Assembly: GCF_963921235.1 (NCBI RefSeq)
Contig: NC_086108.1
Coordinates: forward strand, 36,210,001 to 36,274,000
Direction of reading: 5' to 3'
Length of the DNA stretch: 64,000 nucleotides
Source: Mobula hypostoma
Taxonomy: Eukaryota
The position numbers and the translations under genes are program-made. Shown here piece by piece: positions 21,020 through 45,731 of the stretch (the stretch's first letter is position 1; every line of letters begins with the position of its first letter). The notes under the pieces were generated by a model, which worked only from the letters and a program-made list of their open reading frames with translations, was not told the DNA's origin and made no database searches.

Positions 21020-21105
21020 ACCCACCCCTGGCATAGTCCAACAATGGCCACTCCGTTCCAGCTGAGTTTAGGTTGCTGCTTACCAAGTCTGCACAGTCAA
21101 AAACG

Positions 21106-21324
21106 CAAACAACAGGAATTCTGCAGATGCTGGAAATTCAAGCAACACACATCAAAGTTGCTGGTGAACGCAGCAGGCCAAGCAGCATCTATAGGAAGAG
21201 GCGCAGTCGACGTTTCAGGCCTAACGTTAGTCCTGACGAAGGGTCTCGGCCTGAAACGTCGACTGCGCCTCTTCCTGTAGATGCTGCTTGGCCTGCTGCG
21301 TTCACCAGCAACTTTGATGTGTGT
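21106..21324. mobile_element. Palindromic PLE-terminus mini-insertion
   Basis: 80-bp inverted arms 21142-21221 / 21248-21327 (1 mismatch); 16-bp direct repeat TGCACAGTCAAAAACG at 21090-21105 and 21325-21340. Confidence 0.9.
21229..21264 (+). ncRNA. Minimal type I hammerhead ribozyme motif (PLE-associated)
   Basis: AGTC CTGACGA AGG-GTCTCGG-CCT GAAAC GTC GACT: stem I AGTC/GACT, core CUGANGA and GAAA, palindromic ACGT stem III; predicted cleavage after 21260. Confidence 0.8.
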
Positions 21325-22050
21325 TGCACAGTCAAAAACGACTGGTTTTGCCCAAATTTGCTCCTTTTCTACTCCCTCTCCCATCTTCAGTTGGGCTTTG
21401 ACACCGACACTCATACTTCCCACGCCTGAACCATTGAAAAAAGAAAAGAAAAGCATATTGAACAAATTTTAGCATTTTTAACTCATTTCCATTTGATATA
21501 TTTTGTGATTGTACCAAAGTGACAAGGGTAAATCAGATACTATAATTTGCCAGTAGGACATGCTCTCCATATTGTGAGAGTCTGAAAGAAGTATAAAGTG
21601 AGATACAATAGGTGGAAGGTCAAGTGGAGCAGGAACATTAGAATCCACCATTTGTCCTAAATGTTTCAGTGCAGTATTGAATATAATTCTACGTTAATTT
21701 ACTTGTGCACAGAGACATATTCAAGCCAGGTAGAGAATGTGAAAAGTGATGCATACTTTAGATGCATACTTTTAAATATGGAGGACTCTTGTAGATTTGC
21801 CTCAGTAAATAGGTTATAGTCATTCAGAAATGTTGAACAGCCATGTCCTTTATCTCTGGAAAATAGAAAACTATGTTTCAGATTATTGAGGATTTGGTAG
21901 GTTAAATGCTGAATTGATAGGGAAGAACAAATCAAGGGGCGATTACTATAAGGTGGTCAAAAATAACAGAATTCATGAGAACATCTCAACCAGATATTTA
22001 CAAAGAATGTAGAAACGCTACTTCTAGAAATTAATGAAAAGGACAGCATA

Positions 22051-22994
22051 TCTATATACTACTAAAACTCTCATGCTCGGTCTGTCTGTTCGTCTGTTTG
22101 TGACCTCCAATTAGCACAAACGGCGCATTACAGTGGCACTTTTTTTTGGCTAAATCGAATTAAAATGCGCTAACTTACAGAATGCAGGCAAAGTTCAAGG
22201 TTATATATCCATATAAAATTGCTGATTCGCCAAAAATCAACACGCTGCCTTTCACCCAAGACCCGATTGGCCAGCATGGAAATAGGGACGCCACAGCCCG
22301 ACGCATGTGCACAGCCAGCCTCAGCAGCGGGTCACGATGCTCACAGAGCCGCTCCCACCTTCCATGGAGACGGCGACGGCACAGCCGGATGCATGCACAC
22401 GGCCAGCCTCAGCAGCTTGGAGACTTTGGTGTTACTGCTTCCTATCTTCTATCAAGCATTAGGGTAAAAATATATGGATAACCTAATTATGCCGGGTGGA
22501 AAGAGAAGGGGGACATTATGGTTAAGAGATGACACCTGACGTCGTTGGGAAGCAGCAAGGAGAGGGAGACAACAACAATCGGATGAAGCTAAGGCCACAC
22601 GATTCCAGGATCAAAGAATCGGGACAAAAAAGGTGAAAGAAGAAGAGACAGAGGAGGAGAGGCATGCACGTCTCCAGGATCAGAGACAAACAACAAACAG
22701 CAGAAGAGATGAAGAGACGGGGGATGAAAAGACTGCACGTCTCCAGAATGACAACGAGATGCACAAGGGTGGCAGATAAACCAGAAATGATGCCATCAAA
22801 AGTGTCATTCGTTAAATGAGGAGCAGCTATATTTGCTTAGCTACGAGTCGTTCTTCTTTAATAAACTGAGGTTTTCTACTTCAGTTTCGAAAGCAAAGCG
22901 AAACCAATAGGAAAATTTAATGTTCATTCTGGTCACATCAGACTGCACTACCCTTCTCTCAAAGGGTGCCCCAATGGGTCACCCCATTGTCTAG
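22051..22994 (+). mobile_element. Non-autonomous Helitron
   Basis: A|TCTATATAC 5' end; 3' hairpin GGGTGCCCC-AAT-GGGTCACCC (22964-22984) then CTAG|T; no TSD; internal decayed ORF with ETEEERHARLQDQR repeats. Confidence 0.85.
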
Positions 22995-24523
22995 TATGAA
23001 CTAAAGCTGGGTAAGCACACAAGAAAGAACTAAAAGGATATTTTAAGAAGGAAATTTATAAATGAATGGGGCGAGATTTGTTTGCAGCATAAATACTAAC
23101 AGTCAAGTTGGGCTAAATGGACTGGTTTTATAATGTACATTTTTACAGTTGTTCAATGGAATTATAATATTTAAATATTGCTTTTATTGTTTTTTGTTGG
23201 CATTTAACTTTTTAATTTCATTAAAAAATTTACACTTTGTTCATTTGTATTTCTTGATAGGCTGTAATTTGCATCCCTTTGTGCATACTGAAAAAGAAGC
23301 GTAAAACCTAGCTGTTTGGTTATTTGGGGCATAGCTTTTATTTCAGGAAGGAAGATACCTTGTTTCTCACTGTATGGGTTTGTCCATGAAGAGGGGGTTA
23401 CAGGATACAGAAAGTTTAAAGAAAGATGTATTTTCTTTTATAATGTAAATAATTACTCCACTGATGCAGGCTTTGCCTGTCATTAAAGAATTTAATATTG
23501 AGCCCAGATTTTAGAGCTGGGTATTGCATTAAAACGGGAGAGAACAAGTCTTTGTCCTGCCTGTCCAGGTAGACCCATTGTTTCAGCTTGCTCCTGTCCC
23601 ACCAAACTCATTTCTGCATACCTCGCCACTGTTTTATCCCCCTTTGTTCAATCCCCTCCCGCCTATGTTCGTGACGCTTCTCACGCTCTGAATTTTTTCA
23701 ATGATTTTAAGTTCCCTGGCCCCCACTGCTTTATTTTCACCATGGATGTCCAGTTCCTATATACCTCCATCCCCCACCAGGAAGGTCTCAAAGCTCTTAG
23801 CTTCTTTTTGGATTCCAGACCTAACCGGTTCCCCTCTACCACCAGTCTTCTCCGTCTAGCAGAATTTTACTCTTAATAATTTCTCCTTTGGCTCCTCCCA
23901 CTTCCTCCAAACTAAAGGTGTAGCCATGGGCACCCTTATGGGTCCCAGCTATGCCTGCCTTTTTGTTGGCTTTGTGGAACAATCCATGTTCCAAGCCTAT
24001 ACTGGTATCTGTCCCCCACTTTTCCTTCGCTACATTGACGACTGCATTGGTGCTGCTTCCTGCATGCATGCTGAGCTCGTTGACTTTATTAACTTTGCCT
24101 CCAACTTTCACCCTGCCCTCAAGTTTACCTGGTCCATTTCCGACACCTCCCTCCCGTTTCTTGATCTTTCTGTCTCTATCTCTGGAGACAGCTTATTTAC
24201 TGATGTCTACTATAAGCCTACGGGCTCTCACAGCTACCGGGACTATTCCTCTTCCCACCCTGTCTCTTGCAAAAATGCCATCCCCTTCTCGCAATTCCTC
24301 TGTCTCCACCGCATCTTCTCTCAGGTTGAGGCTTTTCATTCCAGGACGAAGGAGATGTCTTCCTTTTTTAAAGAAAGGGGCTTCCCTTCCTCCACCATCA
24401 ACTCTACTCTCAGGCCTATTTCACGCACATCTGCTCTCACCACATCCTCCCGCCACCCCGCTAGGAATAGGGTTCCCCTTGTACTCACCTACCACCCCAC
24501 CAGCCTCCGGGTCCAACATATAA

Positions 24524-24614
24524 GGGAAGGGTCTCGGCCTGAAACATCGACTGCGCCTCTTCCTATAGATGCTGCCTGGCCTGCTGCATTCACCAGCAAC
24601 TTTGATGTGTGTTG
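24524..24614 (+). mobile_element. PLE terminal-repeat fragment inserted into the PLE ORF
   Basis: Flanked by ATATAA at 24518-24523 and 24615-24620; ORF resumes (IILRNFHHLQRDPTTKH) after it. Confidence 0.85.
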
Positions 24615-24960
24615 ATATAATTCTCCGTAACTTCCACCACCTCCAACGGGATCCCACCACTAAGCACGTCTTTCCCTCCCCCCCCCCGCTTTCCGCAGAG
24701 ATTGCTCCCTACGCGACTCCCTTGTCCATTCGTCCCCCCCATCCCTCCCCACCGATCTCTGGGCTTTCCCTCTCCCCCTTTCTTTATCCCTAGGTCTCCT
24801 GTCCCATGATCTTCTCCCTTCTCCAGCCTCGTGTCTCTTTTGCCGATCAACTTTCCAGCTCTTAGCTCCATCCCTCCCCCTCCTGTCTCCTATCATTTCG
24901 GATCTCCCCCTCCCCCTCCCCCTCCCACTTTCCAATCTCTTATTATCTCTTCTTTCAGTT

Positions 24961-24996
24961 GGTCCTGACGAAGGGTCTCGGCCTGAAACGTCGACT
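24961..24996 (+). ncRNA. Minimal hammerhead ribozyme motif in the PLE terminal repeat
   Basis: GGTC CTGACGA AGGGTCTCGGCCT GAAAC GTC GACT; predicted cleavage after 24992. Confidence 0.78.
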
Positions 24997-25374
24997 GTAC
25001 TCTTCCTATAGATGCTGCCTGGCCTGCTGCATCCACCAGCATTTTTTATGTGTGTTGCTTGAATTTTCAGCATCTGCAGATTTCCTTGTGCTTTTGTTTT
25101 TGAGAGCAGACTCTCCTGGTGATTGCTAAAATTTTCTTTAGTTAATTTTACTTTGCATTTATTAAGTAAATACTCCATGATTAACTCGTTGTGGTGCACA
25201 GATGTGGCAGTGCTATTGCAGTCTTGCACCCTGACCTGGAACACCTGGCTGTCAAATGTCATACGTTCTGTCTGCTGAGGGAGTGCTCTGTTATCATCCT
25301 GGTAGCGGTGTATATTCCATCTTGGCAAATGTCAGACTGGTGGTACTGGAGGAACTGAGCATCGTGGTCAGCAA

Positions 25375-26535
25375 TCACAAGTTGAGGATGCCATTGTCTA
25401 CCTGCTGAACCGTGTCTATGCCCACCTGGACAAGCCAGCGAGCACTGTGAGGATCATGTTTTTTGACTTCTCCAGTGCGTTCAACACCATCCGCCCTGCT
25501 CTGCTGGGGGAGAAGCTGACAGCGATGCAGGTAGATGCTTCTCTGGTATCATGGAATCTTGATTACCTGACTGGCAGACCACAGTACGTGTGCTTGCAAC
25601 ACTGTGTGTCCGACAGAGTGATCAGCAGAACTGGGGCTCCACAGGGGACTGTCTTGTCTCCCTTTCTCTTCCCCATTTACACCTCGGACTTCAACTACTG
25701 CACAGAATCTTGTCATCTTCAGAAGTTTTCGAATGACTCTGCCATAGTTGGGTGCATCAGCAATGGAGATGAGGCTGAGTACAGGGCTACGGTAGGAAAC
25801 TTTGTCACATGGTGTGAGCAGAATTATCTGCAGCTTAATGTGAAAAAGACTAAGGAACTGATGGTAGACCTGAGGAGAGCTAAGGTACCGGTGACCCCTG
25901 TTTGCATCCAGGGGGTCAGTGTGGACATGGTGGAAGATTACAAATACCTGGGGATATGAATTGACAATAAACTGGACTGGTCTAAGAACACTGACCAGTG
26001 TCAGTGTGAAGGGTCGGAGCCGTCTCTATTTCCTGAGGAGACTGAGGTCCTTTAACATCTGCCGGATGATGCTGAGGATGTTCTACGAGTCTGTGGTGGC
26101 CAGTGTGATCATGTTTGCTGTTGTGTGCTGGGGCAGCAGGGTGAGGGTAGCAGACACCAACAGAATCAACAAACTTATTCGTAAGGCCAGTGATGTTGTG
26201 GGGATGGATCTGGACTCTGTCACGATGGTGTCTGAAAAGAGGATGCTGTTCAAGTTGCATGCCATCTTGGACAATGTCTCCCATCCACTACATAATGTAC
26301 TGGTTGGGCACAGGAGTACATTCAGCCAGAGACTCATTCCTCCAAGATGCAGCACAGAGCGTCATAGGAAGTCGTTCCTGCCTGTGGCCATCAAACTTTA
26401 CAACTCCTCCCGATCCAGGGTATGCAATATTACCACAAGGAGAAGGTACTAGAGCCTAAAGATCAACACCAAATGATACAGGAATAGCTGCTTCCATTCT
26501 GCCATTAAGGGTTTTGAATGGCCAACAAATCTACG
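25375..26535 (+). mobile_element. Rex1/Babar LINE (RT + C-terminus), followed by an older Rex 3' fragment
   Basis: RIMFFDFSSAFNTI, GAPQGTVLSPFLF, LQLNVKKTKEL, YKYLG, RLYFLRRLRSF, RKSFLPVAIKLYN. Confidence 0.9.
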
Positions 26536-26551
26536 AATGCTTTTCTCATTA

Positions 26552-28525
26552 CAGGTTTCCCCCGCTATCTGAAGGTAGAGCATTCCTGTGAAACAGTTTG
26601 TAAGCCAGAATGTCGTAAAGTGAATAAGCAATTACCATTTATTAATATGGGAAAAAGTTTTGAGCGTTCCCAGACCCAGAAAATAACCTACAAAATCATG
26701 CCAAATAACACAAAACCTAAAATAACAGTAACATATAGTAAAAGCAGGAATGATATGATAAATACACAGCCTGTATAAAATAGAAATACTTTTCTGCATT
26801 GTCTAGCGCAGCGAAAGTCTCACAGCAGCGCTCTCGGAGGAAGCGCTTTCGGCAGAGGCACGGCGCAAGCGCTCGCGGCAGAAACACTCTCTCCAGTAAC
26901 CTTTATGCTATGAAGCTGCCAAATCATCCCAAATAACACATAAAAATACACAGCCTATATAAAGTAGAAATAACGTATGTACAGTAGCCAAACTCACTAT
27001 TGCCATATTTATTGCTGATGGTTCAAAACCTTTAAAATTGTTCACTGCTTCGGGACACAGTTTCCTCCAAACGCCATTTCTCATCGAGACTGTTAGCCTA
27101 TCGAGAGCATCTCCAATGTTGGCGATTGTCAATTTTATATTGCATTCTTTCCAGACCTCTCGCAAAGACGCTTCGGAGTTGCCCTCTCTGTCAATGGTAC
27201 TTACAATAAAACGCATCACATTTTGCGCATAGCAAGCCTTAATTGTGGCTATTAGGCCTTGGTCGCACGGCTGCAGCAACGATGTCGTATTCGGCGGTAA
27301 GAACGCAACACGAATGTTACTGCCATACTTGGTAATGTCAGGCGGATGAGCAGCACAATTATCGACAATCACAAGACACCTATTATTGAGGTTATTTTCT
27401 CTACAGTATTTTTCAACAAAAGGACTAACGTATCTGCTCATGTACTCAGAAAAAAGCACTTGGGTATTCCAACCACTTAGATGTGAATGGAACACAACAG
27501 GAAGTGTTTTCTTATCAACGCCTTTAAGTGCCCTCGGATTTTCTGAATGGTACACTAGTAGAGGCTTAAGGACAGCATCACCAGTGGCGTTAATAATAGG
27601 CATTAGGGTAAACCTGTCCTTCGATGCCTTGTGTCCCTTAGCCTGCTTTTCTTCTATCGAAATAAATGTCTTGCTCGGCAATTTTTTCCAATAAATTGCA
27701 GTTTCGTCACAGTTAAACACGTGCTTATATGAATAACTGCCTTCTGTAATTATTTTCTTCAGTTCTGCTGGGAACTTTTCGGCAGCCTCAGTATCAGCCG
27801 AAGCACTCTCTCCAGTAAGCGTTAAACTATGAAGCTGCCCTCACTTCAGAAACAGATCAAACCACCCATGACTACCTTTAAATTCCACTTTTGCAACACT
27901 TTCATCACCATCGTCCAGTGCTTTCTGTTTCAACTTATTAAAAAGACTGACTGATTTCTCCTTAAGTATAAGAAAACTTAACGGAACACCACACTTTGTA
28001 CACCCATCAATCCACTCAAGCAATAGACTTTCCATTTTATCCATTATTGGATGCCGACTAAGAGAGACCGCTTTGCTACGAGCAGAACCAACAGTAACAT
28101 CGGCAGCTTTCAAAATTCTTGTTCTCTGCATATAAATAGTGCGAATGGTAGAGGCAGGCAAGTTCAACGCGCAGACAATGTCCTTACTTCATTCACCACA
28201 ATTGAAACGCTAAACTATATCTAGTTTTATGTTAAGTGTAACGCCCTTACGAGCTCTTTTAGGCTTTTCTGATACCTTAGAACTCATCTTACTAACGGAT
28301 ACGCAAAATAAATCGAGATAAAGCACGTGTTTAAGCAATGGCGGCTAGAATGCAGTTCCGGGGGAGGAGCTTGGCTGTTCAGGCGCGCGCTGCTTTTTTT
28401 CGTAACAGTGAAAACACCTTCTGTTAGTGAAAACACCTTCTGTTAGCGAAAACAGGTAACTAATATAGGTCTTTTGTAACAGCGAGGTGTCGTAAAGCGA
28501 ACATTCAGAAAACGGAGGCCACCTG
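26552..28525 (-). mobile_element. Tigger/pogo-like DNA transposon, inactivated
   Basis: TA|CAGGT...ACCTG|TA termini; CENP-B-type HTH (FKGSHGWF) and DDE motifs FNCDET, VDNCAAHP, FLPPNTTSLLQPCDQG. Confidence 0.95.
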
Positions 28526-29185
28526 TATTGCTATTTTGTTTTTCTTTAATGTTTATGTCTTACACTGTACTGCTTCTGCAAAATAACAAATTTCATGACT
28601 TATATAAGTGACAATAAAACTGGTTCTTATTTATCAGTGACCCAGAAAATGAATGAAAGTATGTTAGAGTCATAAAGTATCATTCAGTTTAGAGATCAAA
28701 TGACAAAGACATTTCTGTTTGAGGCAGGAAGGCAAATGTTTGTTTATTTATAGTTTTAACATGTCAGTTTTTATTACCTTTTTCTGCTTCTAATATTGAC
28801 TACTGAATTCAAATCACTCAGCTGTTCCTCCATTAAATTGTCTACTTTATAATGAAATACTAGTGGAGATTCAATATCTTGTAAGTGACCGACAATAGTC
28901 AAGGGCAAACATTGAAATGTTCATTGTACTTTGGAGTCTTTAATGAAGCCGGAATTCTGTAATGATGATGGTGGTTACTAACCAATTAGTACTATAGCTA
29001 CATTTGTGAAGTGCCATCTGCTAAATGTAAGTTTAGATTATAACATAATATTTCTGCTTCCCCAAACAGAATGGTTTGGTCTTGCAAGGATTGCTTAGAT
29101 AAGCAGGTTTTAAAGTTATTTTCAATTATGCCTGAAAGGCAGTCCCCTTTGTCACAAAATGCAGCACATGACACCTTCAATTAAT

Positions 29186-29230
29186 TTTAATGTGTTCAGC
29201 ATCAAGCTCCTTGATGCTGAACACATTAAA
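29186..29230. repeat. Perfect 21-bp inverted repeat with 3-nt loop
   Basis: TTTAATGTGTTCAGCATCAAG-CTC-CTTGATGCTGAACACATTAAA. Confidence 0.95.
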
Positions 29231-29434
29231 TTTCTGTAGCAGAAATTTGCACATTTTAAAGAAACTGATTTCACCATAGCAGTATCCAGCTTGGCAGAAT
29301 ATTTTTATAATTGTATCCATAAACAGTGTTATCAAGGAAAAAATACGGATTTTTTTTGAACTTTTTAAGATGGAACTGAGGCCAAATGTGGGAGCAGATT
29401 TGAGTTTTTCTAATTTAAAGAAATGTTATTTTAT

Positions 29435-29730
29435 TTACTCAGAATGTGGGTATCACTGGCTAGGTCTGCATTTATTGCTTGATTGCCTCTGAACTGAGTG
29501 GGTTGTTGTGTTTAGAGGTCAGCCAAGAAGCAACTGCATTACTATGGATCATGGTTTAAATAAAACATACGGATGGCAGATTTCTTTCCCTGAAGGATTT
29601 AATAAACTAAATGGATGTTTATGCTAATTTAACGGTACTGGTGACCATAGATCTGACATCAGTTTTTAATTCCAGTTTATTTAGTACTTTAATTTCACCA
29701 CTGCTGTGGTGGGATTCAAATTCAGGTCTC
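29435..29730 (-). mobile_element. Ancient tRNA-derived SINE (tentatively MetaSINE-type core)
   Basis: Minus strand has B-box-like TTTGAATCCCACC, core CCTTCAGGGAAAGAAATCTGCCATCC and tail AATAAATGC..GCCAGTGATACCCACAT. Confidence 0.55.
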
Positions 29731-30139
29731 AATAGAAATGGATACAAGTTCACTACTTAATTACTTCACTATTGTGCATCTATTGTGATGCTGAGACACG
29801 TCATAGAATGCGTTGGGACACACCATCAGTGATGTAACCTGGGGTCGTTGGGTGTTATGGGTCTTTCAACATCAGACACTCTCAATAACCAAATGAAGAG
29901 AAATTTGGAAAATTTTAGTTAGGTATCTGCAGAATTTTTGATGCTTTTATTCAGTGTCTATTTTCCTTTGTTAGCTTTGCCAAGATTCTATCCCTGATTT
30001 AGTGTGCCAGATCAGACTGGCTTTTCCCTGTCTGGAATTAATTCTTGTTGCCTCCCATCACGATGCTTGTGCTTATCAATTATAATGGCGTGTATAGCAA
30101 TATAAGCTGTCACAATCTTTAGTGAGAAGTTCCCTTACG

Positions 30140-31948
30140 TAGAATAGTACAGCACAGTACAGGCCCTTCGGCCCACAATGTTGTGCTGACCCTCAAACCC
30201 TGCCTTCCATATAAGCCCCCACCTTAAATTCCTCCATATACCTGTCTAGTAGTCTCTTAAACTTCACTAGTGTATCTGCCTCCACCGCTGACTCAGGCAG
30301 TGCATTCCACGCACCAACCACTCTCTGAGTGAAAAACCTTCCTCTAAAATCCCCCTTGAACTTCCCACCCCTTACCTTAAAGCCATGTCCTCTTGTATTG
30401 AGCAGTGGTGCCTGGGGAAGAGGCGCTGGCTATCCACTCTATCTATTTCTCTTATTATCTTGTACACCTCTATCATGTCTCCTCTCATCCTCCTTCTCTC
30501 CAAAGAGTAAAGCCCTAGCTCCCTTAATCTCTGATCATAATACATACTTTCTAAACCAGGCAGCATCCTGGTAAATCTCCTCTGTACCCTTTCCAATGCT
30601 TCCACATCCTTCCTATAGTGAGATGACCAGGACTGGACACAGTATTCCAAGTGTGGCCTAACCAAAGTTTTATAGAGCTGCATCATTACATCGCGACTCT
30701 TAAACTCTATCCCTCGACTTATGAAAGCTAACACCCCGTAAGCTTTCTTAACTACCTTATCCACCTGTGAGGCAACGTTCAGGGATCTGTGGACATGTAC
30801 CCCGTGATCCCTCTGCTCCTCCACAGTACCACGTATCCTGTCATTTACTTTGTACTCTGCCTTGGAGTTTGTCCTTCCAAAGTGTACCACCTCACACTTC
30901 TCTGGGTTGAACTCCATCTGCCACTTCTCAGCCCACATCTGCATCCTATCATTGTCTCTCTGCAATCTATGACAATCCTCTACACTATGTACAACACCAC
31001 CAACCTTTGTGTCGACGGCAAACTTGCCAACCCACCCTTCCACCCCCACATCCAGGTCGTTAATAAAAATCACGAAAAGTAGAGGTCCCAGAACAGATCC
31101 TTGTGGGACACCACTAGTCACAATCCTCCAATCTGAATGTACTCCCTCCACCACGACCCTCTGCCTTCTGCAGGCAAGCCAATTCTGAATCCACCTGGCC
31201 AAACTTCCCTGGATCTCATGCCTTCTAACTTTCTGAATAAGCCTACCGTGTGGAACCTTGTCAAATGCCTTACTAAAATCCATATAGATCACATCCACTG
31301 CATTACCCTCATCTATATGCCTGGTCACCTCCTCAAAGAACTCTATCAGTTTTGTTAGATACGATCTGCCCTTCACAAAGCCATGCTGACTGTCCCTGAT
31401 CAGACCATGATTCTCTAAATGCCTATAGATCCTACCTCTAAGAATCTTTTCCAACAGCTTTCCCACCACAGACGTAAGACTCACTGTCTATAATTACCCG
31501 GACTATCCCTTCTACTTTTTTTGAACAAGGGGACAACATTCGCCTTCCTCCAATCCTCCGGTACCATTCCCGTGGACAACGAGGACATAAAGATCCCAGC
31601 CAGAGGCTCAGCAATCTCTTCTCTCGCCTCGTGGAGCAGCCTGGGGAATATTCCGTCAGGCCCTGGGGACTTATCTGTCCTAATGTATTTTAACAACTCC
31701 AGCACCTCCTCTCCCTTAATATCAACATGCTCCAGAACATCAACCTCACTCATATTGTCCTCACCATCATCAAGTTCCCTCTCATTGGTGAATACCGAAG
31801 AGATGTATTCATTGAGGACTTAGCTCACTTCCACAGCCTCCAGGCACATCTTCCTACCTTTATCTCTAATCGGTCCTACCTTCACTCCTGTCATCCTTTT
31901 TTTCTTCACATAATTGAAGAATGCCTTGGGGTTTTCCTTTACCCTACT
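30140..31948 (-). mobile_element. Young 5'-truncated CR1 LINE, same subfamily as 9004-11345
   Basis: 370-aa RT ORF 30372-31484, highly similar to the 9-11 kb copy. Confidence 0.95.
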
Positions 31949-32074
31949 TCCCTTCCTCACTTCAAAACTAGTTTAGGTTGTAAAGGCCATTGGTGACATT
32001 TAATGGAAATTAAATGGAAGTAAAAATTGCAAAAAAATTAAGAATTTTAAAAATGGAGATGTGAATGTAATGTT

Positions 32075-32335
32075 AATGCATGGTAGTGCAATGGTTAGCA
32101 CAACACCTTACAGTGTAGGCAACTCAGGTTCAATTCCCGCTGTTGCCTATGTACGCTCTCCCTGTAACTGTTGATTTCCTCCCACAGTCCAAAGATGTAC
32201 TGGTTGGTAGGTTAATTGATCCTTGTAAATTGTCTCGTGATTAGGCTACAATTAAATTAGAAGATAACTGGGCAGTGTGATTTGAAGGCCGGAAGGGCCT
32301 ATTCCGCACTGTATCTCAATAAATAAAACAATTAA
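32075..32335 (+). mobile_element. tRNA-derived V-SINE (HE1-like elasmobranch SINE)
   Basis: A box TAGTGCAATGG, B box GGTTCAATTCC, V-domain TTTCCTCCCACAGTCCAAAGATGT..TTGTAAATTGTC, CR1-like tail GAAGGGCCTATTCCGCACTGTATCTC. Confidence 0.8.
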
Positions 32336-33218
32336 AACCATTGAAGAAAAATTATCTTTGCCTAATAACAATTCCCATTGAAATTCATGCGGTTTCAAAT
32401 TCTGTGCTAACATGGAAGATTCCACAGTAGACTTATCCCCCAAAGACCTATGGGGAAAATTGGGCTTCTCCTCTAGATTGTGTTGCAATCTAGCTGTGTA
32501 ATAAATAATATTTGTTAGAACAATCTGGTCAAATATTGTTTCAAATAAATATTTTAAATACTTAATCCTAAGTAAATGAATCATCAGTATCTCCATTTTG
32601 CTTTACTTTCATTGACAATATTTAGAAAGATAAGACATTTTCCTGACTATCCCCTTTCTCCCCCAATAAAGTTGCCATTATTCATGCATTGGTACCCCAC
32701 ATGACCATCCTTGTTATGAAATTTGGCAAGTGCATTTTTGAACACAGCAATTGTAGGGTGTCTGATGTGTGACTGCTGGTAAATCTGTTATTACACTAAC
32801 TGGACTTGGTCAGAATGCTTAAGCCTATTTTGTGTGAATTTAGATTTTATTGCTAAGTGTTGTGCAAAATTAAGATACTTGTGTATGCAATTAAGTTAAT
32901 AATGCATTTGGATGATTATTTTAATGTTAATTCTAAAATTTTTGAATTATTTCATCTCAAGGTCAGTTTGAAACTAGTGGGGAAGCAGAAGTGGGTTGTA
33001 AGCGAGTAAAGATAGGACAATGGTTTTGCCATCTATCAAATGTGTTTTTTTTCAAAATATTAATGGCGGTGATTTGTTTTGGTCTGTCTTTATGATATGA
33101 TTACCTTTCATGAATGAATCTGAAAGACATTAGTTAAAACATAATTTTTTTGATGGGTATACATAAGGTAAATGCAGTGTAGTGGGTACTTGAAAACAAA
33201 CTGAAACTACTCAGATAT

Positions 33219-34260
33219 TGAGTACAGGGGTTGACACTGTATGGCGCATTTCCTAAATATCAACTTTTCAAATCGTGAAAAGTATGTTCGATTCTTTATT
33301 ATGAAATCAGTAAAGACAAACGATCTTATAGCAATAAAACTACCATAAGTAAAATTAGCAATCCTAGCTGTATAATAACATAAGTGGTCAACAAAAAAAA
33401 TCACCCCCGCGCTAACTAGACTAAACTGACCTAAAGACAAAGTGTGAACATGTAACTGTACTTATTTGCTTCTACCACACCCCCAACCCAAGTGACAAAT
33501 TACCCATAATAAATGCACAACACAAAATGCAATGCAGACTGACAGAAAATGGACTCCTATATCCCGTCCCCAATTATTATATTATAATAATTACAGCTAC
33601 GTACTACAAAAAAAGGAGACATGAAATCTTCAAAAAGAAACATCTTACCATTCATACAAATGTCCTCTTTCTTCTTTCAGTCAAGTCATGTAACAGTCAT
33701 CTAGGCCAGAGGTTACCAGCACTTAGTCCAATATAGATTGATGTTTACCACCACTTTCTGTCAAGTCAAAAGTCATGAAGCTTCTAGAGCTGTAGCTCCT
33801 CAAACCTCTCTCCTGTAGAATACAGATCTTGGTTATCGGTCTTCAGACAGCTGGTCTTGGTCTTGATGCGTACCTGCTGCATAAATCCTCTTCTTCCTGG
33901 AAAGACTTGAATGACGCTTCCCATCATCCATGAGTTTCGGGGTGCTGTGTCATCAAGTATAAGCACAATATCTCCTGGGAGGAAATTTGTGTTTTATGTC
34001 TGACCATTGCTGAGGTTCCTGTAGCTGTGGTAAATACTCCTTGGCCCATTGTTTTCAAAACAAATTTGACATGTATTCGTCAACTTCTGTCTGCAACATG
34101 CAGAAGTGTCTTCCTTTTGGAACTTTCCTGTTGGTAAGGATGGTGAGGTCTTCAGAAGGTCTTCATGGTTGGGTGCTGGTGCTTCCAAATCATTGGGATT
34201 GGAGAATGCTTTAGTAATTGGACAAAAATTGATGATAACCCCCACTTCATGGCTCCGACA
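33219..34260 (-). mobile_element. BEL/Pao LTR retrotransposon remnant (integrase C-terminus, PPT, probable 3' LTR ~33219-33561)
   Basis: PITKAFSNPNDLEAPAPNH and LILDDTAPRNSWMMGSVIQVFPGRRGFMQQVRIKT are BEL polyprotein C-terminal motifs; purine tract ATTGGGGACGGGA on the minus strand at ~33562-33575. Confidence 0.8.
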
Positions 34261-34526
34261 TGCAGAATAATTGTGTCTCTAAACAGCAAGTTCAGAAGCA
34301 TAGTGACTAGTTTTGGTGGCAAGTGTGATATAATTTGCAAGATCCATGCCAGTCTTTAAATTTTGTTAACACGTTTCAAGTATTTTCACAGAAAAAACAT
34401 CGCCTTTTTTTTATCAGCAAAGTTAATCATATTACATTAAAGAAACCTTTGACTTAAATTCAGGAACCTGTATTGATTGGTGAGGAACATTGCAGTTTTT
34501 GTATCTTAAAAAACTTTGTATCATAA

Positions 34527-34706
34527 ACACAAAATAATCTGCAGATGCTGGGGTCAAAGCAACACTCACAACATGCTGGAGGAACTCAGTAGATTGGGCA
34601 GCATCCATGGGAAAGATCGGTCTACGTTTCGGACCGGAATGTCGACCGATCTTTCCCATGGATGCTGCCCGACCTGCTGAGTTCCTCCAGTGTGTTGGGA
34701 GTGAAG
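34527..34706. mobile_element. Palindromic PLE-terminus mini-insertion (second family)
   Basis: ~70-bp imperfect inverted arms 34563-34632 / 34634-34703; 13-bp TSD CTTTGTATCATAA at 34514-34526 and 34707-34719. Confidence 0.88.
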
Positions 34707-35620
34707 CTTTGTATCATAATGTTTGACAGAATAATGAGAATAGTCTTAACTCAAAGTTGCAAGAAATTGAAAGTTCTTTGCGAGAAAATGTGCAGGGTGT
34801 GTTCAACTGTACATCCTGAAATTGACAGTCTTATGGATGTCTTTTATTTTCTGTTTTGATAATCTTATATGTGAAGTCTACATTCCAGTTAAAGAATGAA
34901 CAAGTCTGCAGAGGAACCTCCATTTGATATTTCTCCTTTGCAAGAGGCAACGCTTTTGGTTTAAAAAATAACTTACTGATAGATCCCTAAGGTTGCTATT
35001 TTCAAATGGTTTGTGCTGATTGCTGCAAATTATGCAGATGTCTTGTATGTTAGGTTCTTCAATATTAGATTGAAATTTTAAAGTAATTAACAAGCCACGA
35101 GATATGTGGCTGCAGTACAGTTTCTTCTCAAGAAGTATGTTCTTCAAATTTTTTGACATTCAAGGCAAATTACAACTGTAATCTTATTTGGAAAATTTAT
35201 TTGTTGCTGTTCAAAAGGATTGGTAAACAGATTGGGAAGTTTCTGTGCTATTGAGGTAAGAGTTTTAACTTCAGAATATAGTTTGATCTATTGGTATATC
35301 ATTGCCGATATAAAACTTGTATTTGTCTACAAAGTTGTGTGTATGAGGATTTGACTTTATTCTATCTTACATCCGTTAATTTCCTTTTCTCTCCCCACTT
35401 CCCCCAGTTTCTGGCTGCAAATGCACAGTACAAATAACATAATGAATATATTGTTTAAATTGATATTATTAAATCACAAAGCAAGATATTGAATTTCTTG
35501 AGAACCTCTGGTTCTTTGTAGGTCTGTTCAGTCAGTCCCATTCCTCTGCCATTGATGATTGTCTGCCTGAGGTATCTAGAATTAGAAGTCATAATCTCAA
35601 AAACATTCAAGACAGAGCTG

Positions 35621-36598
35621 CAGACATCCCACCTCTCTCGGAACTTCTGGGAGTCTCCCGCATATTAGTAGGGGCTCCCTGATGCCCGCAAATTATATAC
35701 AATGTCTTGGAAATTGATTTTTTTTGAAAGCGAGCGTGAGAGAACGCGCGAGAAAGAGCGAGAGAGCGAGCGCAAGAGCAAGAAAGCAAGCACGAGTCAG
35801 TGCGACCGCGAGAGAGAGCGAGAGCAAGAGCGAGAGAGCGACCGCGAGAGAGCGCGAGCGAGAGAGACAGAGAGCAAAAGCGAGAGAGTGACCGCGAGAG
35901 AGCGCGAGTGAGAGAGACAGAGAGCAAGAGCGAGAGAGCGAGCGCGAGTGAGAGCAACTGCGAGAGAGAGAGAGCGAGCGCGAGTGAGAGCGACTGCGAG
36001 AGAGAGAGCAAGAGCGAGAGAGCCAGCATGAGTGAGAGTGACCGCGAGAAAGTGAGCGCGAGTGAGAGCGACCGTGTGAGAGAGAGAGAGAGAGGGCGAG
36101 GGCGAGTGAGAGCAAGAGCAAGAGAGCGACCACGAGTGAGAGCGATCACGAGAGAGAGCGAGTGAGAGTGACCGCGAGAGAGCAAGAGCAAGAGAGTGAG
36201 CGCGAGTGAGAGTGACCATGAACGAGAGAGTGAGAAAGTTCCAAAAATAGTCAGAGTAGCATAGTGTCCCAAAAAAAGAAAATATAAAATGTACGTCACC
36301 CCAGACTACCCTAAAGTGTACCCCTGCCTAATGGGGCTCAAAATAATGACAGTGTTGCTCGCTGCACTGTTTGCAACAGTGACTTTTCTATTGCCCATGG
36401 TGGGTTAAGACTGTAAAAGACATGTTGAGGTGAGTTTAACAGGTGTCATTCGTTCATTGGCATAGCTAACGTTATTTAAACTAGCTGGCTAGCTGCTAAG
36501 GAGCTACTCTATTGCAGACATCACACCTCTCCCGAAAGTCTCCCGCAAATTGATGGTGCTACCTCCCTGAAATGAGTTTTTGCAGGGTGGGATGTCTG
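35621..36598. mobile_element. Unclassified non-autonomous DNA transposon (MITE), 13-bp TIR, 6-bp TSD
   Basis: CAGACATCCCACC...GGTGGGATGTCTG; flanks GAGCTG / GAGTTG; interrupts a CR1 fragment that reads FKT-EL-RRNHFIQRVVN when one TSD copy is removed. Confidence 0.85.
35728..36236. repeat. CpG-rich (GA/GC) compound low-complexity repeat inside the MITE
   Basis: Recurrent GAGAGCGAGCGCGAGT, GACCGCGAGA and GAGCAAGAGC units. Confidence 0.95.
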
Positions 36599-39500
36599 GA
36601 GTTGAGAAGAAATCACTTCATCCAAAGGGTAGTGAATCACTTTGAGAGGTGCAGAAGCTCAGTCACGGAGTAAATTCCAGAAAGAGATTAATGGATGTTT
36701 TTTGTATCACATTAAATTATTTCCTCAAATACATATTCAAATCCCCTTTGAAGGCCTTGATATATTTTTCTACTCTCCTTGCAAGATAATGAGTTCCAGA
36801 TCATAACTGTTCAGGTATCCCCTTTTTCAACTAGTGTGTCTCCTCTGTTCTTCATGATCAATACTTGAAATCTGCGTCCCTGGATCTGAAACACCTTCTT
36901 TCCACCAATATAAAGGCACTTCTTAAAAAAAAAGTTGGAAGTGGCTATTTAGTACATTGTATCAGCCATTCAATAAAAATAGCACTGCTTTCCTGCACCA
37001 ACCCTCTATTTAAAAAAAAATCATGTCAATTTCTGTTTTGAATACACTCAATACTTGTACCTATATATCCGTCTTGGTGGAAAGTTCAAAAGATTCGCAG
37101 GCAACTAGGTGAAGAAATGTTTCAGTGAAATTACTCCATATTTTTCTAAAATCAAAATGGGCCAGACAGATTAACTGTCTTTTATAATATATGCAACATT
37201 ATAGGACTTGATCTGATGAACCTTTGCTGCACTCTCCCTGTTGCAAGCATATCCTTTTCCAGGTGAAACAACCAGGCTTATACACGGTATTACAGATGCT
37301 GTCTTGCTAGGATTCTATTAAATTTGTGCAAAATGCCTGATCTCAAATCCCCTTACTGTAAAGATCAGCGTGCTATTTACCTTTCTGATTCCTTGCTGAA
37401 CTTGCTGTTTTACTTTGAGTGATTTATGTATTGGGACACTGTTGTCCCTCTCATATTTGTCTGTCTCTTGCTACTTAACAGCTGCCCCAGCTTATTTTTT
37501 CCCTACTAAAGTGGGATTGCATTATATTATCTACATTTGTGTCTGCATTTCTGCATTTTATCTGCATCATATGTCATTTTTCATGTCCTTGCCTATTCAT
37601 TTAAAGTGGATGTACAGGTACAAGTCTGAAGCCTATCAGCATCCTTTTCACTGTTAGATTTGTACAATCAGCAAACTTGTACATCTTGGTATTAACTGAG
37701 GACAGCTGGAGCTGGTGTACTGATCCATACAGCATCTGACTGGTCTTTGAGTTATGATTGTTGACTTTTTTATGCGTGTTAACCAATCCTCAATCCATAC
37801 CCAGTCTATTATTCCCAAGGTCATGTGATTTCTTTGTAGATTATATCTGGTGTGGCAATTTACCAAAGGCTTTATGGAACTCCAGAAACACCACATTAAC
37901 CAGTTAAATCTTCAAAACAAATTCACAATATTTGTCAAGATTATGTCCAGCCTTGTTATTTTTCAAAGGCCCCATTAGCACTTCTTTAATAATAAATTCC
38001 GGGCTAAGTTGTCTTCAGTTTCTTGTTTTTTTCTCTCTTGCTCTTATCTATGGGAGCTCGTGCATTATGCTTCTGTTTACTGCTAGCCTACTCTTTATTC
38101 TTGTTTCCTTTCCTGCTTTGGTGCTTCTTTGCTAAATTCTGAAATTCACAATTTCCAGGCTTAATTTTGGGCAATATAAATCTTTTCCTTGATCTTGGAG
38201 GGTTATTTATTACCTGGAATCATTGCATTATTTCTTTACAAGCTAGGAATTCCTTGTTTGATGTCATTCCCAATGTAGGCATGAGCTGGCTATCGCGAGT
38301 TCATACCTTTGTAAATTAGAATCATAGAGTTTACAATATGGAAACAGATCTTTCACCCCACCGAGGCTGACCTGCTTAGCCATGATCACTAATTCCATAA
38401 AGGCGCAGATTAAGACTATAATCCTGTAATCTTCTAAACTTTGCCTATTTAAGTGCCTCTCTCCTACTTCAATTATATTGGAGCTAAATTAATTTAACTT
38501 TTCATATACATTTCTGTCATATTACTCTTCCTTTAAAGAGGCAGATATATTTGGGGCATTTAAGAAACTCTTAGATAGGTACATGGATGATAGAAAAATG
38601 CAGGGCTATGTGGGAGGGAAGGGTTAAATTAATCTTGGAGTAGGCTGAAAGTTTGGCACAACATCATGGACCATATTACTGGCTATAATAGTCTGTGACT
38701 TTCAGTACGCAGTTCTGGATCCAAAGCATCCCATTGCTTTTCTGGTTTCTCAATATACTGATCGAGGAAACCATGTCTTAAGAACTCCATGAATTCATCC
38801 ATTTATGCAGTTAATAATTTGGTTTACTGATTAAAATTTATGATTTAATGATTAAATGTTTTGTGTTACTGCTATACGATTATTACATAAACTTCTAATT
38901 TTCTAACCTGTACTCTGCCCTACATTGCTGCTACCATCTGAGGGCTTCTATTCAGTCCTCTTCTGCTTTTTGCTGCTTATTAGCTCTTTCAGTCCAGCTA
39001 GTCCACGCTGACCAAGCTGCAGAGCCACATTAATACCACTTCCCTCCAACTGGCCAATTTCCTTCTATTACTTTACAATATCAAATGATTTTTAAAAGCT
39101 GTTATTGTATTTGACTGTACCACTTCTTCTGGCAGCTTATTCCATGCATCCACTGATTGAAAATTTACTCCTCAGATGTCTTGAAGATCTGAACTAAAAT
39201 CCTTCAATTTATGCTTTTGTCATTATTTAATATCAGAGCTACCCCTCAATTTTCTTTGTTGTACAACAATCCAACCTTCTCCCATGGATCTTTGTAGCAA
39301 ATTGCCTGCAAGGTGATACCAACCTAGTTGGTGTAAAGTTTTCTAGTGTACCAGTAAAAATATAATCAAATGGATTTAATTTCTTGACAATTTCACTAGG
39401 GTTTAGAATTAGTTCTTTTTTTTTGATGATACTTATTCTTGCCAATTTGCCTGTAAAATCCAATTTCTGAAATAAATAGAGGTCATCACACAACATACCA

Positions 39501-41444
39501 ATTTCTTGATACACACTATTTGATTATTTTAAAATATCCTCTCAGATCAGTTTGTCAAAACATGTGCTTGTTTCTGTAGAGCTGACTTGTTCCTGAGGAA
39601 GACCTTTTCAGTTCTCGACCTGGTATTCTCAGCCTGCTTTCACTTCCAAAATGAACCCATCTCTCAAAAATCTCAGTTTTGAGATTTATTGTTTCTGTAT
39701 TCTTCTATACTCTTCCAGCTGTTCTCTAACCTTTCACACTTAATATACTTGACATCATTAAAAACTCATCCAGAGGCCAATACAATTTTAAAATTCTTGT
39801 TCTTGTTTTCAGTTCTCTCTTTTGTTCTCTGTGTCATTTCTTCCTGTCCTCCAGGATCTCTGCACTCCTCTCTTTTTGGACTTCTGTGCATCCCCAGTTA
39901 ACATCTCTTCACCTGCAGCTATACTTTACACTATCTACCCCCATGTTCTTTACTCTCCTCTCCTGTCCTCAGATCATTATGCGGCCTGGCATCATATTTT
40001 TAATCATTGCTGTGATAAACTCTGGGATATTTTATTACATTAAGGGTATTTTAAATTTTGCTTTGTTTTTTATGGATGCATTTGCATTTTCATTAGCATT
40101 TGGGGAAAATAGGATTTTTCTAGTTATCTAAAAAATTAAAGTTATGTCAACTTTGTCTCTAAAACAGAATTAAGCTTAAATTAACAGCTATAGACTGTGA
40201 GAATTTACCTTGATAACATTAATATTAGAATTTTTGTTTTCTTCCCTTAATTGTGAATGCTCCCTTTTTGTTGCAACATTTTCACTTATACTTTTACTCT
40301 TCTGAACTTTTGCGCTGCAAAGATGACATAGACTGGTGCATTCCTCAAGTTATCTCTAGCCTGTATGCGCATTTTGAAAGCTGCACAAGATATTCTGAAA
40401 ACAAAATGAACAAAAATGTAAATTTTGTATATTTATTTTATTGATAATATAAAATTCACCATCATTGGCATCTCCCAGGAGAATCTTTGCTTTTCTGTCT
40501 AAAGAGTGAAGAGTGGTTTGATTAGGATGACAGGTGGGTACACAGGCTAATTAACCTTGGTTTCTGCATTGTGCCTCAAGGGAGGTGAAAAAGATTTCTT
40601 ATGCACACATGTAGGCAGAAGTTCAGCAAAACATGTTCAAGTTCTCCAGTGTTATTATGATTATCTGTGGCCCAAAGCGAAGTACCACACTAGTGTCTTC
40701 AATAATATCTACATTCAAGACTTTCAGAGGCAATCATCACTCTTTGGAAGGGGCAATAGCTGACTCCAGCCTCACAAAGTGAGCATTCATTGGCTATATC
40801 CCAGAGCAATTTATTTATCTGATCCCACCTTCCTGCCAACTTAACTGTCAAGAGGTCAAAAAGGCCATTTGCTTCATGAAAATCAAGGCCTTGTGGTCAG
40901 AACCTCAGTCACAAATCTACAACCTTATTTCCCACTTCTGAGAAAAGAAGTACTTGCCAGTACCATCAGTCACCATACACATATTCAAAGAAGGAGACAA
41001 AGCCTACAAAGGTAGCCACTATCTAAACTCTGCCACAGGTAAAATTATTGACAGGCTCCTTTTAAATTGCGACTTCCTGGTCACCAAAAAGCTACTTTGA
41101 AAATCACAGTTTAGATTCCGTACAGCTAGGTGCACAATCCTCACCACACAACTCCGGGAAAAATGTGGCACTTTATGTGGTCTTTTCCTCCTCATGGAAG
41201 TCTTGGACCCTGTCAATAAAGAAGGATTGTGGTGTGTTCTTTTAAAATTTATCTTCATTTCACATTTGTCTCATAATCTTATGTGATCCCTGGTCCTTAA
41301 CAATGAGACCACAGCATGTCCATTTTTGTGTGTAGGTTGGTGTTGAGCAAGACTGTGTCATTGCCCAGGCAGTTTCTTGTTAGTCTTTCTGACCATGCTG
41401 CCTCCTCTCATTTCCAGCAAGCTTCCTGCTGAAATTGAACTTAT

Positions 41445-42132
41445 TGTAGCCCCCCCCCCCCCCGGCCACCCTCAGGGTCGCTCGGCTCGCTGTCGTCTAG
41501 GGAAACAGCCTCGGCCCCGCCAAACTGGATAATTCGTTTGTGTGGATGCTGTGTGAGGTACCCCACCCCGCCCAAATAACAGACTGGTATTAAATGATTT
41601 ACAGTTTATAGATATTACTGGAACTATATAATTAAAAGAGAATAAAATATAAAAGGAAAATAAAAGGCGCCACACTTATCGAAGTTCAATCTCTTCGTGC
41701 ACAAAAACCGTTGGAGCTCAAGGACCTTCTTCACCCTGCGACCCCCTCGGACCACCTCGACCGGCCGCCTGGGACCAACAACGGTGGTTGACCAGACGCT
41801 CCACACGAGTCCGTCTCCGTCTCCTCGCCGAACATCCCGCTTGGGGTCCGACCCCGTTAGCGGACTCACAGCACCTCGTCCATCCTCTGTCTCGCTCTCC
41901 CGCCTTCTGCCCCAAAACCCCGCGCATACAGTATCTTCAAATACACCAAAACCATAACAACTATCCCAATTGGTTAATAGCACTCTCTTATCAGACTCTA
42001 AAGCAAAAACAAACTGTTAGCACAAACTTTCTCAGTGTTTAACACAACAAAGCCGCATTCCCCAGATTAACGTAACAAAGACGCCATCTTAATTAGCCTC
42101 CGCAGTAACATAAAAATCGAAACCCCCTTACA
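41445..42132 (-). mobile_element. Solo LTR (688 bp, Gypsy/ERV-like)
   Basis: TGTA...TACA termini with perfect 4-bp TSD TTAT; CpG-rich, so probably young; strand is inferred. Confidence 0.85.
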
Positions 42133-42505
42133 TTATCTACAAGACAGATAGGAACTATTTAGTCCTTGTCATCTCCATTCTTGATTACTCAAGGTTATTC
42201 TAACTTTCGGAGTGGAATTGCAATCTCCTTATAATACTGGGCTATGCTCAAGTTTGAAGGCTGAGCTCCATTCAACAGCACATCCAGCAAAGCATGTGAG
42301 AGGATGGGCCTTGCACTCAAGTCTTTCAAAACAGAAGCCCTTTACTCACCTTCCCCACTTTACAAGTCTTCCCTCTCACAATAAAGGTCCACAATGAAAC
42401 TTTAGGTAAACAACAGGAATTCTGCAGATGCTGGAAATTCAAGCAACATGCATCAAAGTTGCTGGTGAACGCAGCAGGCCAAGCAGCATCTATAGGAAGA
42501 GGCGC

Positions 42506-42541
42506 AGTCGACGTTTCAGGCCGAGACCCTTCGTCAGGACT
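42506..42541 (-). ncRNA. Minimal hammerhead ribozyme motif
   Basis: Exact reverse complement of AGTCCTGACGAAGGGTCTCGGCCTGAAACGTCGACT. Confidence 0.8.
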
Positions 42542-42570
42542 AACTGAAGGAAGAGACTCTTCCTTCAGTT

Positions 42571-42606
42571 AGTCCTGACGAAGGGTCTCGGCCTGAAACG
42601 TCGACT
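42571..42606 (+). ncRNA. Minimal hammerhead ribozyme motif
   Basis: AGTC CTGACGA AGGGTCTCGGCCT GAAAC GTC GACT; predicted cleavage after 42602. Confidence 0.8.
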
Positions 42607-43080
42607 GCGCCTCTTCCTATAGAAAGTTTAGGTAATTTGGGTTACTTTGAATATCTCACTGGGCACTTCTCAGTGAGGGCAGACACAGGTGATCAAATCA
42701 TAAATTACTTCGTTGTGAAAATGTTTGAGGAAAAGGATATTTGAAGATCAAGACCTGAAACCTCTTGCATACTTTTGCTGACACCAGGCACCTTGGTGAA
42801 CTGGAAAGATAGTATCAATTCTATCTGCTTAGTTTTCCAAATTCACTGCCAAACCAAGTGAACCAAATGTCTTCTTCCAGACCTACATCACTGACTTGTT
42901 TCTACAACCTATGGACTCATTTTTAGGGACTCTTCATTTCATGTTCTCAATAGTAATAGCTTATTTATCTTTCTATCTATCTATCGATCGTTATTTATTT
43001 ATTTATGGTATTTGCACAGTTTGTTGCCTTTTGCAAATTTGTTGTTTGTCCGCCTTGCTGTATGTGGGCTATGGCTGATT

Positions 43081-45428: not shown

Positions 45429-45731
<303 letters not shown>

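Follow-up and report, generated by a model that had tools for sequence, protein, structure and literature searches.

Three intact hammerhead ribozyme motifs on the sense strand of one CDC73 intron of Mobula hypostoma are very probably inert passengers in the CDC73 pre-mRNA, where they represent minimal hammerheads of the terminal repeat (pLTR) of a Penelope-like element (PLE), brought in by three separate insertions. They are likely to be inert because two of them are predicted to be locked in fold-backs, which would leave the third with no partner free to pair. In the same genome, truncated copies of the element start in excess at the first base after the predicted cut, possibly a trace of the element cutting its own RNA in vivo.

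Motifs and their host intron

The window is the whole 64,000-nucleotide stretch of contig NC_086108.1 that was analysed. The features needed below are as follows.

7746..7824, + strand: CDC73 exon, parafibromin residues 277-302 (AG/GT-bounded, sequence match)
21090..21340: insertion A, in which two truncated pLTR ends form a fold-back; its target-site duplication is 16 bp long (21090-21105 / 21325-21340)
21103..21221, - strand: antisense arm of A, made of the pLTR tail as far back as motif position 20; its partner in the hairpin is 21247-21327
21229..21264, + strand: hammerhead motif A, with the 17 nt at its 3' end predicted to be base-paired within the hairpin
23551..25092, + strand: insertion B, a Penelope-like element, 5'-truncated and internally deleted
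24526..24614, + strand: core-less pLTR end without CUGA, inserted into the ORF of B, with a 6-bp duplication (24518-24523 / 24615-24620)
24961..24996, + strand: hammerhead motif B, in native pLTR context
42408..42623: insertion C, a fold-back, with a flanking duplication of about 13 bp (shared core at 42401 and 42627)
42506..42541, - strand: antisense copy of the hammerhead, serving in the CDC73 transcript as the masking strand for motif C
42571..42606, + strand: hammerhead motif C, predicted to pair over its full 36 nt with the antisense arm
43080..43165, + strand: degenerate pLTR end with a 10-nt deletion over stem III and the cut site
45442..45506, + strand: CDC73 exon, parafibromin residues 303-324 (AG/GT-bounded, sequence match)

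The two exons bound an intron of 37.6 kb. The preliminary description had named it CDC73 intron 9; the gene and its + strand are borne out by the exon matches, while the number follows the human exon numbering, by which the flanking exons would be 9 and 10. Exons matching Pfam CDC73_N and CDC73_C lie on both sides of the window on the + strand, and a B3GALT2-family ORF is nested downstream on the - strand. A Pfam scan of the frames of the two listed exons gave 0 matches.

When the sequence was re-read, the four motifs (A, B, C and the antisense copy) were found exactly as had been described. Each has the complete hammerhead core (C3 U4 G5 A6 N7 G8 A9, G12 A13 A14) in type I order, stem III is the loopless palindrome ACGU, and GUC precedes the predicted cuts after 21260, 24992 and 42602. 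The 4-bp stem I is intact in the three sense copies. A covariance-model scan of the window, which had been proposed as a check, returned 0 matches at the Rfam gathering threshold. The preliminary description had overlooked that 21229 and 42571 lie within fold-back inverted repeats and that there are core-less copies at 24526 and 43080.

Stem II is better drawn as G13-U24, G-C, G-C and U-G closing a CUCG loop, with one unpaired A after A9; the computed folding energy of this register is -6.0 kcal/mol versus -4.6 for the alternative. The G10.1-11.1 pair is G-U in all four window copies, and among 140 copies it is G-C in 58 and G-U in 75. Across these 140 copies the eight pairs of the 4-bp stems are mostly standard. 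No compensatory double change in the stems is common among them, the only shifts being G-C/G-U and U-G/U-A, and core positions are as variable as other non-CpG positions (3-10%). The C at N7 permits an inactive rod in which the core pairs with the cut site.

Three separate insertions

The three sense copies arrived in three separate insertions. In insertion A the arms are 98.75% complementary, and the 17 paired nucleotides of motif A are predicted to comprise GAAA, ACGU, the cut site and the 3' strand of stem I. Insertion B consists of an RT-region fragment (23556-24521, 90.5% identical to a full-length natural element in this genome) followed by the 3' pLTR; motif B is the only sense copy in this intron that is free of a local antisense arm. 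The insertion of the core-less pLTR end at 24526 is borne out by joints in other copies that skip 97 nt. Within insertion C, 42489-42623 forms a 66-bp perfect hairpin with arms that are 100% complementary.

The insertions are young. In a relative that is about 96% identical (run X2, contig 9), 23550 is joined directly to 25093, which is an empty site for B, and the same contig starts matching at 21325, so that A is apparently absent. At the site of C, one contig stops matching at 42400 with 38 letters unplaced and no joint visible, which is only suggestive of the absence of C and does not count as an empty site. The contigs of runs X1, X3 and X6 cover only the repeats in this region.

Two other identities were considered and rejected. 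A conserved, host-domesticated intronic ribozyme of the HH9 or CPEB3 kind does not agree with the absence of B and the apparent absence of A in so close a relative. A non-LTR retrozyme, built of tandem non-coding units of 150-1000 nt with a hammerhead in every unit, does not agree with copies that are separate insertions or inverted arms and are not arranged head to tail. On contig C1, two of 30 copies have a direct partner within 1.5 kb.

The element and its copies in the genome

The location in pLTRs and the match in structure confirm the identity that had been proposed, namely Penelope minimal type I hammerheads of a form thought to need a partner. Full-length natural copies (L074, L075) have the layout pLTR-ORF-pLTR with the motif in both repeats, and in L074 the two hammerheads are 3,512 nt apart in direct pLTRs. 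The full-length element holds a 1,043-aa frame with a reverse transcriptase (RVT_1, Pfam E 5.5e-5), a Cys linker and a GIY-YIG-like end (E 0.046), both matches being under the Pfam cut-offs. Its layout is that of a Neptune-type EN+ Penelope-like element, a known class; Neptune is provisionally preferred to Nematis on the ground of host range. All six ORFs examined have a CX4CX2C motif between RT and EN, where a CX2-5CxxC linker is a described feature (PMC8557442). Compared with the Neptune and Nematis EN+ elements of Craig et al. (2021, PMC8557442), the GIY-YIG Pfam match here is below cut-off. A Pfam scan of the PLE fragments of the window itself gave 0 matches, and a PDB sequence search with the full element ORF gave nothing significant.

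The exact 34-mer occurs 38,661 times in the genome (19,294 forward and 19,367 reverse), or about once per 90 kb. The motif is not a product of chance, because the reversed pattern gave 0 matches over the whole genome. Nor is it special to CDC73. With three sense copies, the 37.6-kb intron is richer in them than the genome on average (Poisson P = 0.0013), and about 1,900 of 54,000 windows are expected to hold three or more copies. An inverted arm lies near 15 of 43 intact cores in eight genes and near 8 of 30 on contig C1. PLEs typically show such inverted arms with 5' truncation (PMC8557442; PMC3846280).

Predicted folding and proposed cleavage of the pre-mRNA

It had been proposed that copies in one nascent transcript, for example 21229 with 24961, join in cis into a double hammerhead that cleaves the intron co-transcriptionally, affecting splicing or termination. 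We found this proposal unsupported and consider it very improbable. Several observations speak for it: none of the three sense copies has lost a core nucleotide or its stem I, the distance of 3.7 kb between A and B resembles the 3.5 kb of the full-length element, sense copies are denser here than in the genome on average, and the copy at 24526 could serve as a decoy for the antisense arm of A. The folding predictions point the other way. Hairpin energies are -174 kcal/mol for A (-174.1) and -138 kcal/mol for C, and stem I has a predicted probability of 0.00 in context for both, so that A and C are masked. Freeing the motif would cost 34 kcal/mol in A, 12-14 in B and 79 in C, as against 13-15 in the context of the full-length L074. 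For two bare 36-mers, the active double hammerhead reaches -9.5 kcal/mol versus -20.0 for two inactive monomers, and forcing the A-B dimer within the natural segment 21081-25110 (about 4 kb) costs +70 kcal/mol. When the antisense arm is drawn from A by the 24526 copy, the energy is -155.5 versus -174.1 kcal/mol. Furthermore, A and B are separate insertions that are absent (B) or apparently absent (A) in the relative, and the whole CDC73 gene holds 4 intact cores in sense and 6 in antisense. These energies are no proof of inactivity, because nearest-neighbour values ignore Mg2+, tertiary contacts and proteins, and the native L074 context also scored unfavourably.

The inert state that we favour would arise during transcription. 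With the polymerase moving along the + strand, the antisense arms of A and C would be made first, and the emerging hammerheads are predicted to zip up with these earlier-made arms. B is predicted to fold into a weak local structure, and the free antisense tail of A would also be able to pair with the tail of B. The real job of the ribozyme would lie in the full-length element, with its two copies 3.5 kb apart, whose own RNA is likely cut slowly and with the help of protein.

Motif B is locally unmasked, so that any of the many copies transcribed elsewhere, or the element protein, could serve as its partner in trans.

It is unlikely, although less so than cutting by a cis pair, that B alone is cut at a low rate with the aid of the element protein or of a partner on another transcript. 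Such cutting would be harmless, because on this reading the polymerase keeps hold of the exons. The native flanks of B are preserved and its freeing cost is close to that in the full-length element, natural copies with long open frames are present in this genome, protein-assisted cleavage was shown for an anole PLE (PMC11167929), and the excess of starts at the cut described below fits as well. On the other hand, the 4-bp stem I and the 4-bp intermolecular stem III are weak, and the anole RNA needed the start of the ORF for the action of the protein, whereas B has only the pLTR tail.

The least probable reading is that the fold-backs act as double-stranded RNA, their near-perfect hairpins of 66-80 bp being substrates for A-to-I editing or small-RNA processing. 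The near-complete complementarity of the arms in A and C and the frequency of inverted arms near intact cores in the eight genes and on C1 are in its favour; nothing points to an effect on CDC73, and such hairpins are compatible with inert passengers rather than with a function.

Orientation was counted in eight genes covering 1.73 Mb. The sense share is 22 of 43 intact cores, 14 of 28 unmasked cores and 37 of 74 pLTR ends, with wide limits on the share of 0.35-0.67. With 22 intact cores in sense and 21 in antisense, there is no sign of selection on orientation. This balance is also compatible with harmless cutting, because splicing can go ahead in a cleaved intron (Dye et al. 2006, cited through PMC3460197). 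The suggestion that the intron of a conserved gene is cut is not supported by these data: the insertions are young, B is absent in the relative, and introns show neither a shortage nor a surplus of sense copies.

Truncated copies starting at the predicted cut

Genome-wide, 536 truncated copies start at the first base after the predicted cut, about 2.5-3 times the number at five control positions or the 189 predicted by a microhomology model. About 1,200 truncated arms start at the first base after GUC, whereas four control positions have about 370-480 starts and the preceding base has 190. The peak is visible only genome-wide, and among 74 copies from eight genes it could not be seen (1/74). 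We hold it tentatively, at somewhat short of an even chance, that these ends are a fossil record of germ-line self-cleavage by a Penelope minimal hammerhead. On this reading, templates cut by the ribozyme would have let the reverse transcriptase run off their ends, and fold-backs would have come from joining the products. Spliced forms were also considered as the source of copies whose truncation lies at the 5' edge of the motif, and this was rejected, as their upstream sequences share no common donor and several are inversion joints.

Comparison with known systems

The motifs belong to a known class. In the parts of Cervera and De la Pena (2014, PMC4209133) used here, metazoan PLE minimal hammerheads share with ours the core, a 4-bp helix I, an extra nucleotide between A9 and 10.1, a palindromic 15.2-16.2 without loop 3, a place in both pLTRs about 3 kb apart, and thousands of dispersed single copies with close pairs on opposite strands. 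Here helix II is only 4 bp, the C at N7 makes the inactive rod possible, and the youngest copies have G10.1-U11.1, in contrast to G-C there, and 38,661 identical copies compare with about 9,000 in Xenopus and about 4,000 in coelacanth in the same passages. According to these passages, single motifs are inactive, dimers are weak in vitro and in vivo evidence for PLE hammerheads is absent; cartilaginous fish are not named as hosts in the main-text passages concerned.

The hammerhead of the anole Poseidon element PAc cleaves only with its protein, and no RNA-seq ends were found at its site (Frangieh et al. 2024, PMC11167929). PAc likewise has a pLTR hammerhead, most of its templates appear uncut as they do here, and insertions from both nicked strands, as described for PAc, would explain fold-backs like ours. 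The PAc ORF starts inside the ribozyme, whereas the first ATG of the long frame here is well downstream of it, and the genomic copies here show an excess of starts at a cut where PAc shows no RNA ends.

Like the amniote ribozymes HH9/RECK, HH10 and CPEB3, the copies here are motifs of the self-cleaving type on the sense strand of an intron. Those ribozymes are conserved, single-copy, at orthologous sites and active as monomers. Unlike them, the copies here are young repeats that are not conserved in a close relative and have no closed stem III.

For CDC73 itself there is probably no consequence, and the motifs are ordinary young transposon ends; the missing orientation bias in eight genes bounds the harm of such motifs in pre-mRNA. 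At least 38,661 identical intact minimal hammerheads exceed the published counts for Xenopus (9,000) and for axolotl (14,255 retrozymes). The excess of starts makes the in vivo role of PLE hammerheads testable from DNA alone in any PLE-rich genome. If the fossil record is true, it would show in vivo an activity that has otherwise been seen for this class of ribozyme only in vitro, and this in a genome that tolerates intact copies by the tens of thousands on the sense strand of its introns.

Motifs and host gene

All four motifs of the preliminary description (+21229, +24961, +42571 and -42506) were confirmed. The CDC73 domains lie on the + strand (C50:36,121,701 to 36,453,464), so that + is the pre-mRNA strand, as had been claimed for the motifs. 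On either side of the motifs lie exons with AG/GT borders, 7746-7824 matching residues 277-302 of parafibromin and 45442-45506 matching its residues 303-324; from the human exon table, we take the intron between them to be intron 9. A B3GALT2-family single ORF (L042:3185-4513, minus strand; C50:36,287,185-36,288,513) is nested inside CDC73 on the opposite strand, the same arrangement as in human. A covariance-model scan of the window for hammerheads gave no Rfam model at threshold.

Element family

The exact 34-mer occurs 38,661 times in the 3.48 Gb genome, probably by its repeat content that of a cartilaginous fish, evenly between the strands, and its backward reading, used as a control, has 0 matches genome-wide. 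Translation of the stretch ending in the copy at 24961 has at least 150 close genomic relatives (150 scored of 59,257 candidates), and six with long open frames were fetched (L072-L077, up to 8 kb each). L074 is a partial tandem comprising a terminal repeat (pLTR, 952-2003), a 1,043-aa frame and a second pLTR (4462-5515), with a motif in each pLTR, the two motifs being 3,512 nt apart. L075 is arranged similarly; L072 has one motif and L076 two, while L073 and L077 have none within the 8 kb examined. In the 1,043-aa frame, RT and GIY-YIG are each matched weakly and a CX4CX2C linker is present, which agrees with the arrangement reported for Neptune and Nematis Penelope-like elements (PLEs) in PMC8557442. 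The motif has the form of the minimal hammerheads in PMC4209133 (extra nucleotide after A9, palindromic 15.2-16.2), and shares with them the thousands of single copies and the close opposite-strand pairs. This form and the pLTR location in L074 and L075 bear out the earlier identification as a PLE minimal type I hammerhead; the ribozyme class carried in the CDC73 intron is already known.

Insertions in the intron

Insertion A, motif at 21229: fold-back with a 16-bp target-site duplication at 21090 and 21325
Insertion B, 23551-25092, motif at 24961: 3' pLTR of an element that is both truncated and internally deleted
24526: core-less pLTR end inserted within B
Insertion C: fold-back whose arms are the -42506 and +42571 motif copies
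24935-24960 and 42556-42570 (also L074 1830-1868): stretch resembling a 3' splice site

The antisense arm of A spans motif positions 20-36 plus tail. Truncated arms in inverted orientation are a usual outcome of PLE insertion (PMC8557442, PMC3846280); on contig C1, 8 of the first 30 exact copies lie within 1.5 kb of such an arm.

A contig from X2, a relative's sequence run, is ~96% identical to the intron and joins 23550 directly to 25093, so B is absent in the relative. The same contig starts matching where A's right duplication begins (21325), and its 185 letters before this base do not match A. At the site of C a contig stops matching at 42400, which only suggests that C is absent from the orthologous site. 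A further ~940 bp insertion (22051-22994) is likewise missing from the X2 contig.

Other repeats were also observed in the window. Two RT-bearing LINE copies (9009-10819 and 30137-31948, minus strand), presumably CR1/L2-like, are 93-96% identical, 21.1 kb apart and antisense to the gene in the same CDC73 intron. Directly after B, a different LINE contributes an RT fragment and then an ALKBH8_N-like stretch (25306-26452, +). A decayed Tc1/mariner transposase (12406-13370, +), a pogo/Tigger-like DDE_1 transposase (26908-28188, minus strand) and a degenerate GA/CT-rich tandem array with long low-complexity frames on both strands (35607-36305) were also found.

With gene strand set by Pfam exons, and counting only motifs that keep at least 3 of the 4 pairs in each stem, the whole CDC73 gene has 4 sense and 6 antisense intact cores. 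Eight genes (1.73 Mb) contain 43 intact cores, 22 of them sense; of the 28 without an inverted arm, 14 are sense. Young pLTR ends number 37 sense vs 37 antisense. The 95% range of the sense share is 0.35-0.67, and thus only a strong orientation bias is excluded. In Xenopus, overlap with introns is found for ~43% of the copies of related retrozymes (bioRxiv 10.64898/2026.07.22.740005), which makes an intronic location ordinary. Cleaved introns may still permit splicing (Dye et al. 2006, cited in PMC3460197).

The pLTR directly 5' of the hammerhead resembles a 3' splice site, with TACTCAC/TACTAAC similar to a branch point, a pyrimidine tract and CAG. Judged from sequence, sense copies may offer cryptic acceptors; no matching donor was found for them. 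PMC4209133 describes D. virilis PLEs with an intron whose end is helix I.

Pairing and cleavage

It had been proposed that A and B pair in cis as a double hammerhead and cut the CDC73 pre-mRNA. The folding predictions do not support this. A and C are held in hairpins of -174 and -138 kcal/mol, with a stem I probability of 0.00 for each in context. Since the antisense arm precedes the motif in the transcript, the motif is masked in nascent RNA as well, by 25 (A) and 70 kcal/mol (C) when it is just completed. The predicted cost of freeing the motif is 34 (A), 12-14 (B) and 79 kcal/mol (C). For two bare 36-mers the double hammerhead is predicted at -9.5 vs -20.0 kcal/mol for two inactive rods, and imposing the A-B dimer on the natural stretch of 4,030 nt requires 70 kcal/mol. 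On the other side, the method ignores Mg2+ and proteins and assigns a cost of 13-15 kcal/mol to the native element too, and the 24526 copy could act as a decoy for A's antisense arm, at -155.5 vs -174.1 kcal/mol. Published PLE hammerheads show no activity as monomers and little as dimers (PMC4209133; review PMC6765202), and the anole PLE hammerhead requires the element's protein for cleavage (PMC11167929). We regard the cis-dimer cut as very improbable, and low-level cutting of B alone as only slightly less so; the most likely reading is that all three sense copies are inert.

Copies starting at the predicted cut site

The predicted cut, between motif positions 32 and 33, sits mid-way in a 6-bp palindrome. 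Copies matching from a given position with all three preceding letters mismatched were counted genome-wide.

Copies starting at each motif position
Position: starts; filter-corrected
25: 152; 481
30: 186; 471
32: 85; 191
33 (first base past the cut): 536; 1,203
34: 199; 447
36: 166; 373

The corrected excess at position 33 is ~2.5-3x four controls and 6x the preceding base, the position-25 pattern being of different length. A crude microhomology model (four parameters, fit to the five controls) predicts 189 starts at position 33, and 38 of the 100 listed rows, sorted by eye, belong to classes that microhomology or loss of a single base could explain. When joints were inspected at the first 15 of the 536 loci (14 sites), most were fold-backs: in 12 the sense arm beginning at position 33 abuts a variable antisense arm, in two unrelated flank and in one element ORF sequence. 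Besides the palindrome, the crude model, the different pattern length and the classes sorted by eye, two features of these joints weigh against the excess: six of the 15 share 3-4 letters at the joint, and one identical joint is common to three, which may not be independent.

Among the 74 pLTR ends of the eight genes the position-33 peak is not visible (1/74); for 13 the 5' boundary falls between motif positions -3 and +3, which amounts to mild clustering at the ribozyme 5' edge. The whole motif is retained in most copies, so most templates were uncut. No printed precedent for a start-site excess at a PLE hammerhead cut was found in a search that reached few subscription papers, and this excess is the portion of our results that deserves follow-up.
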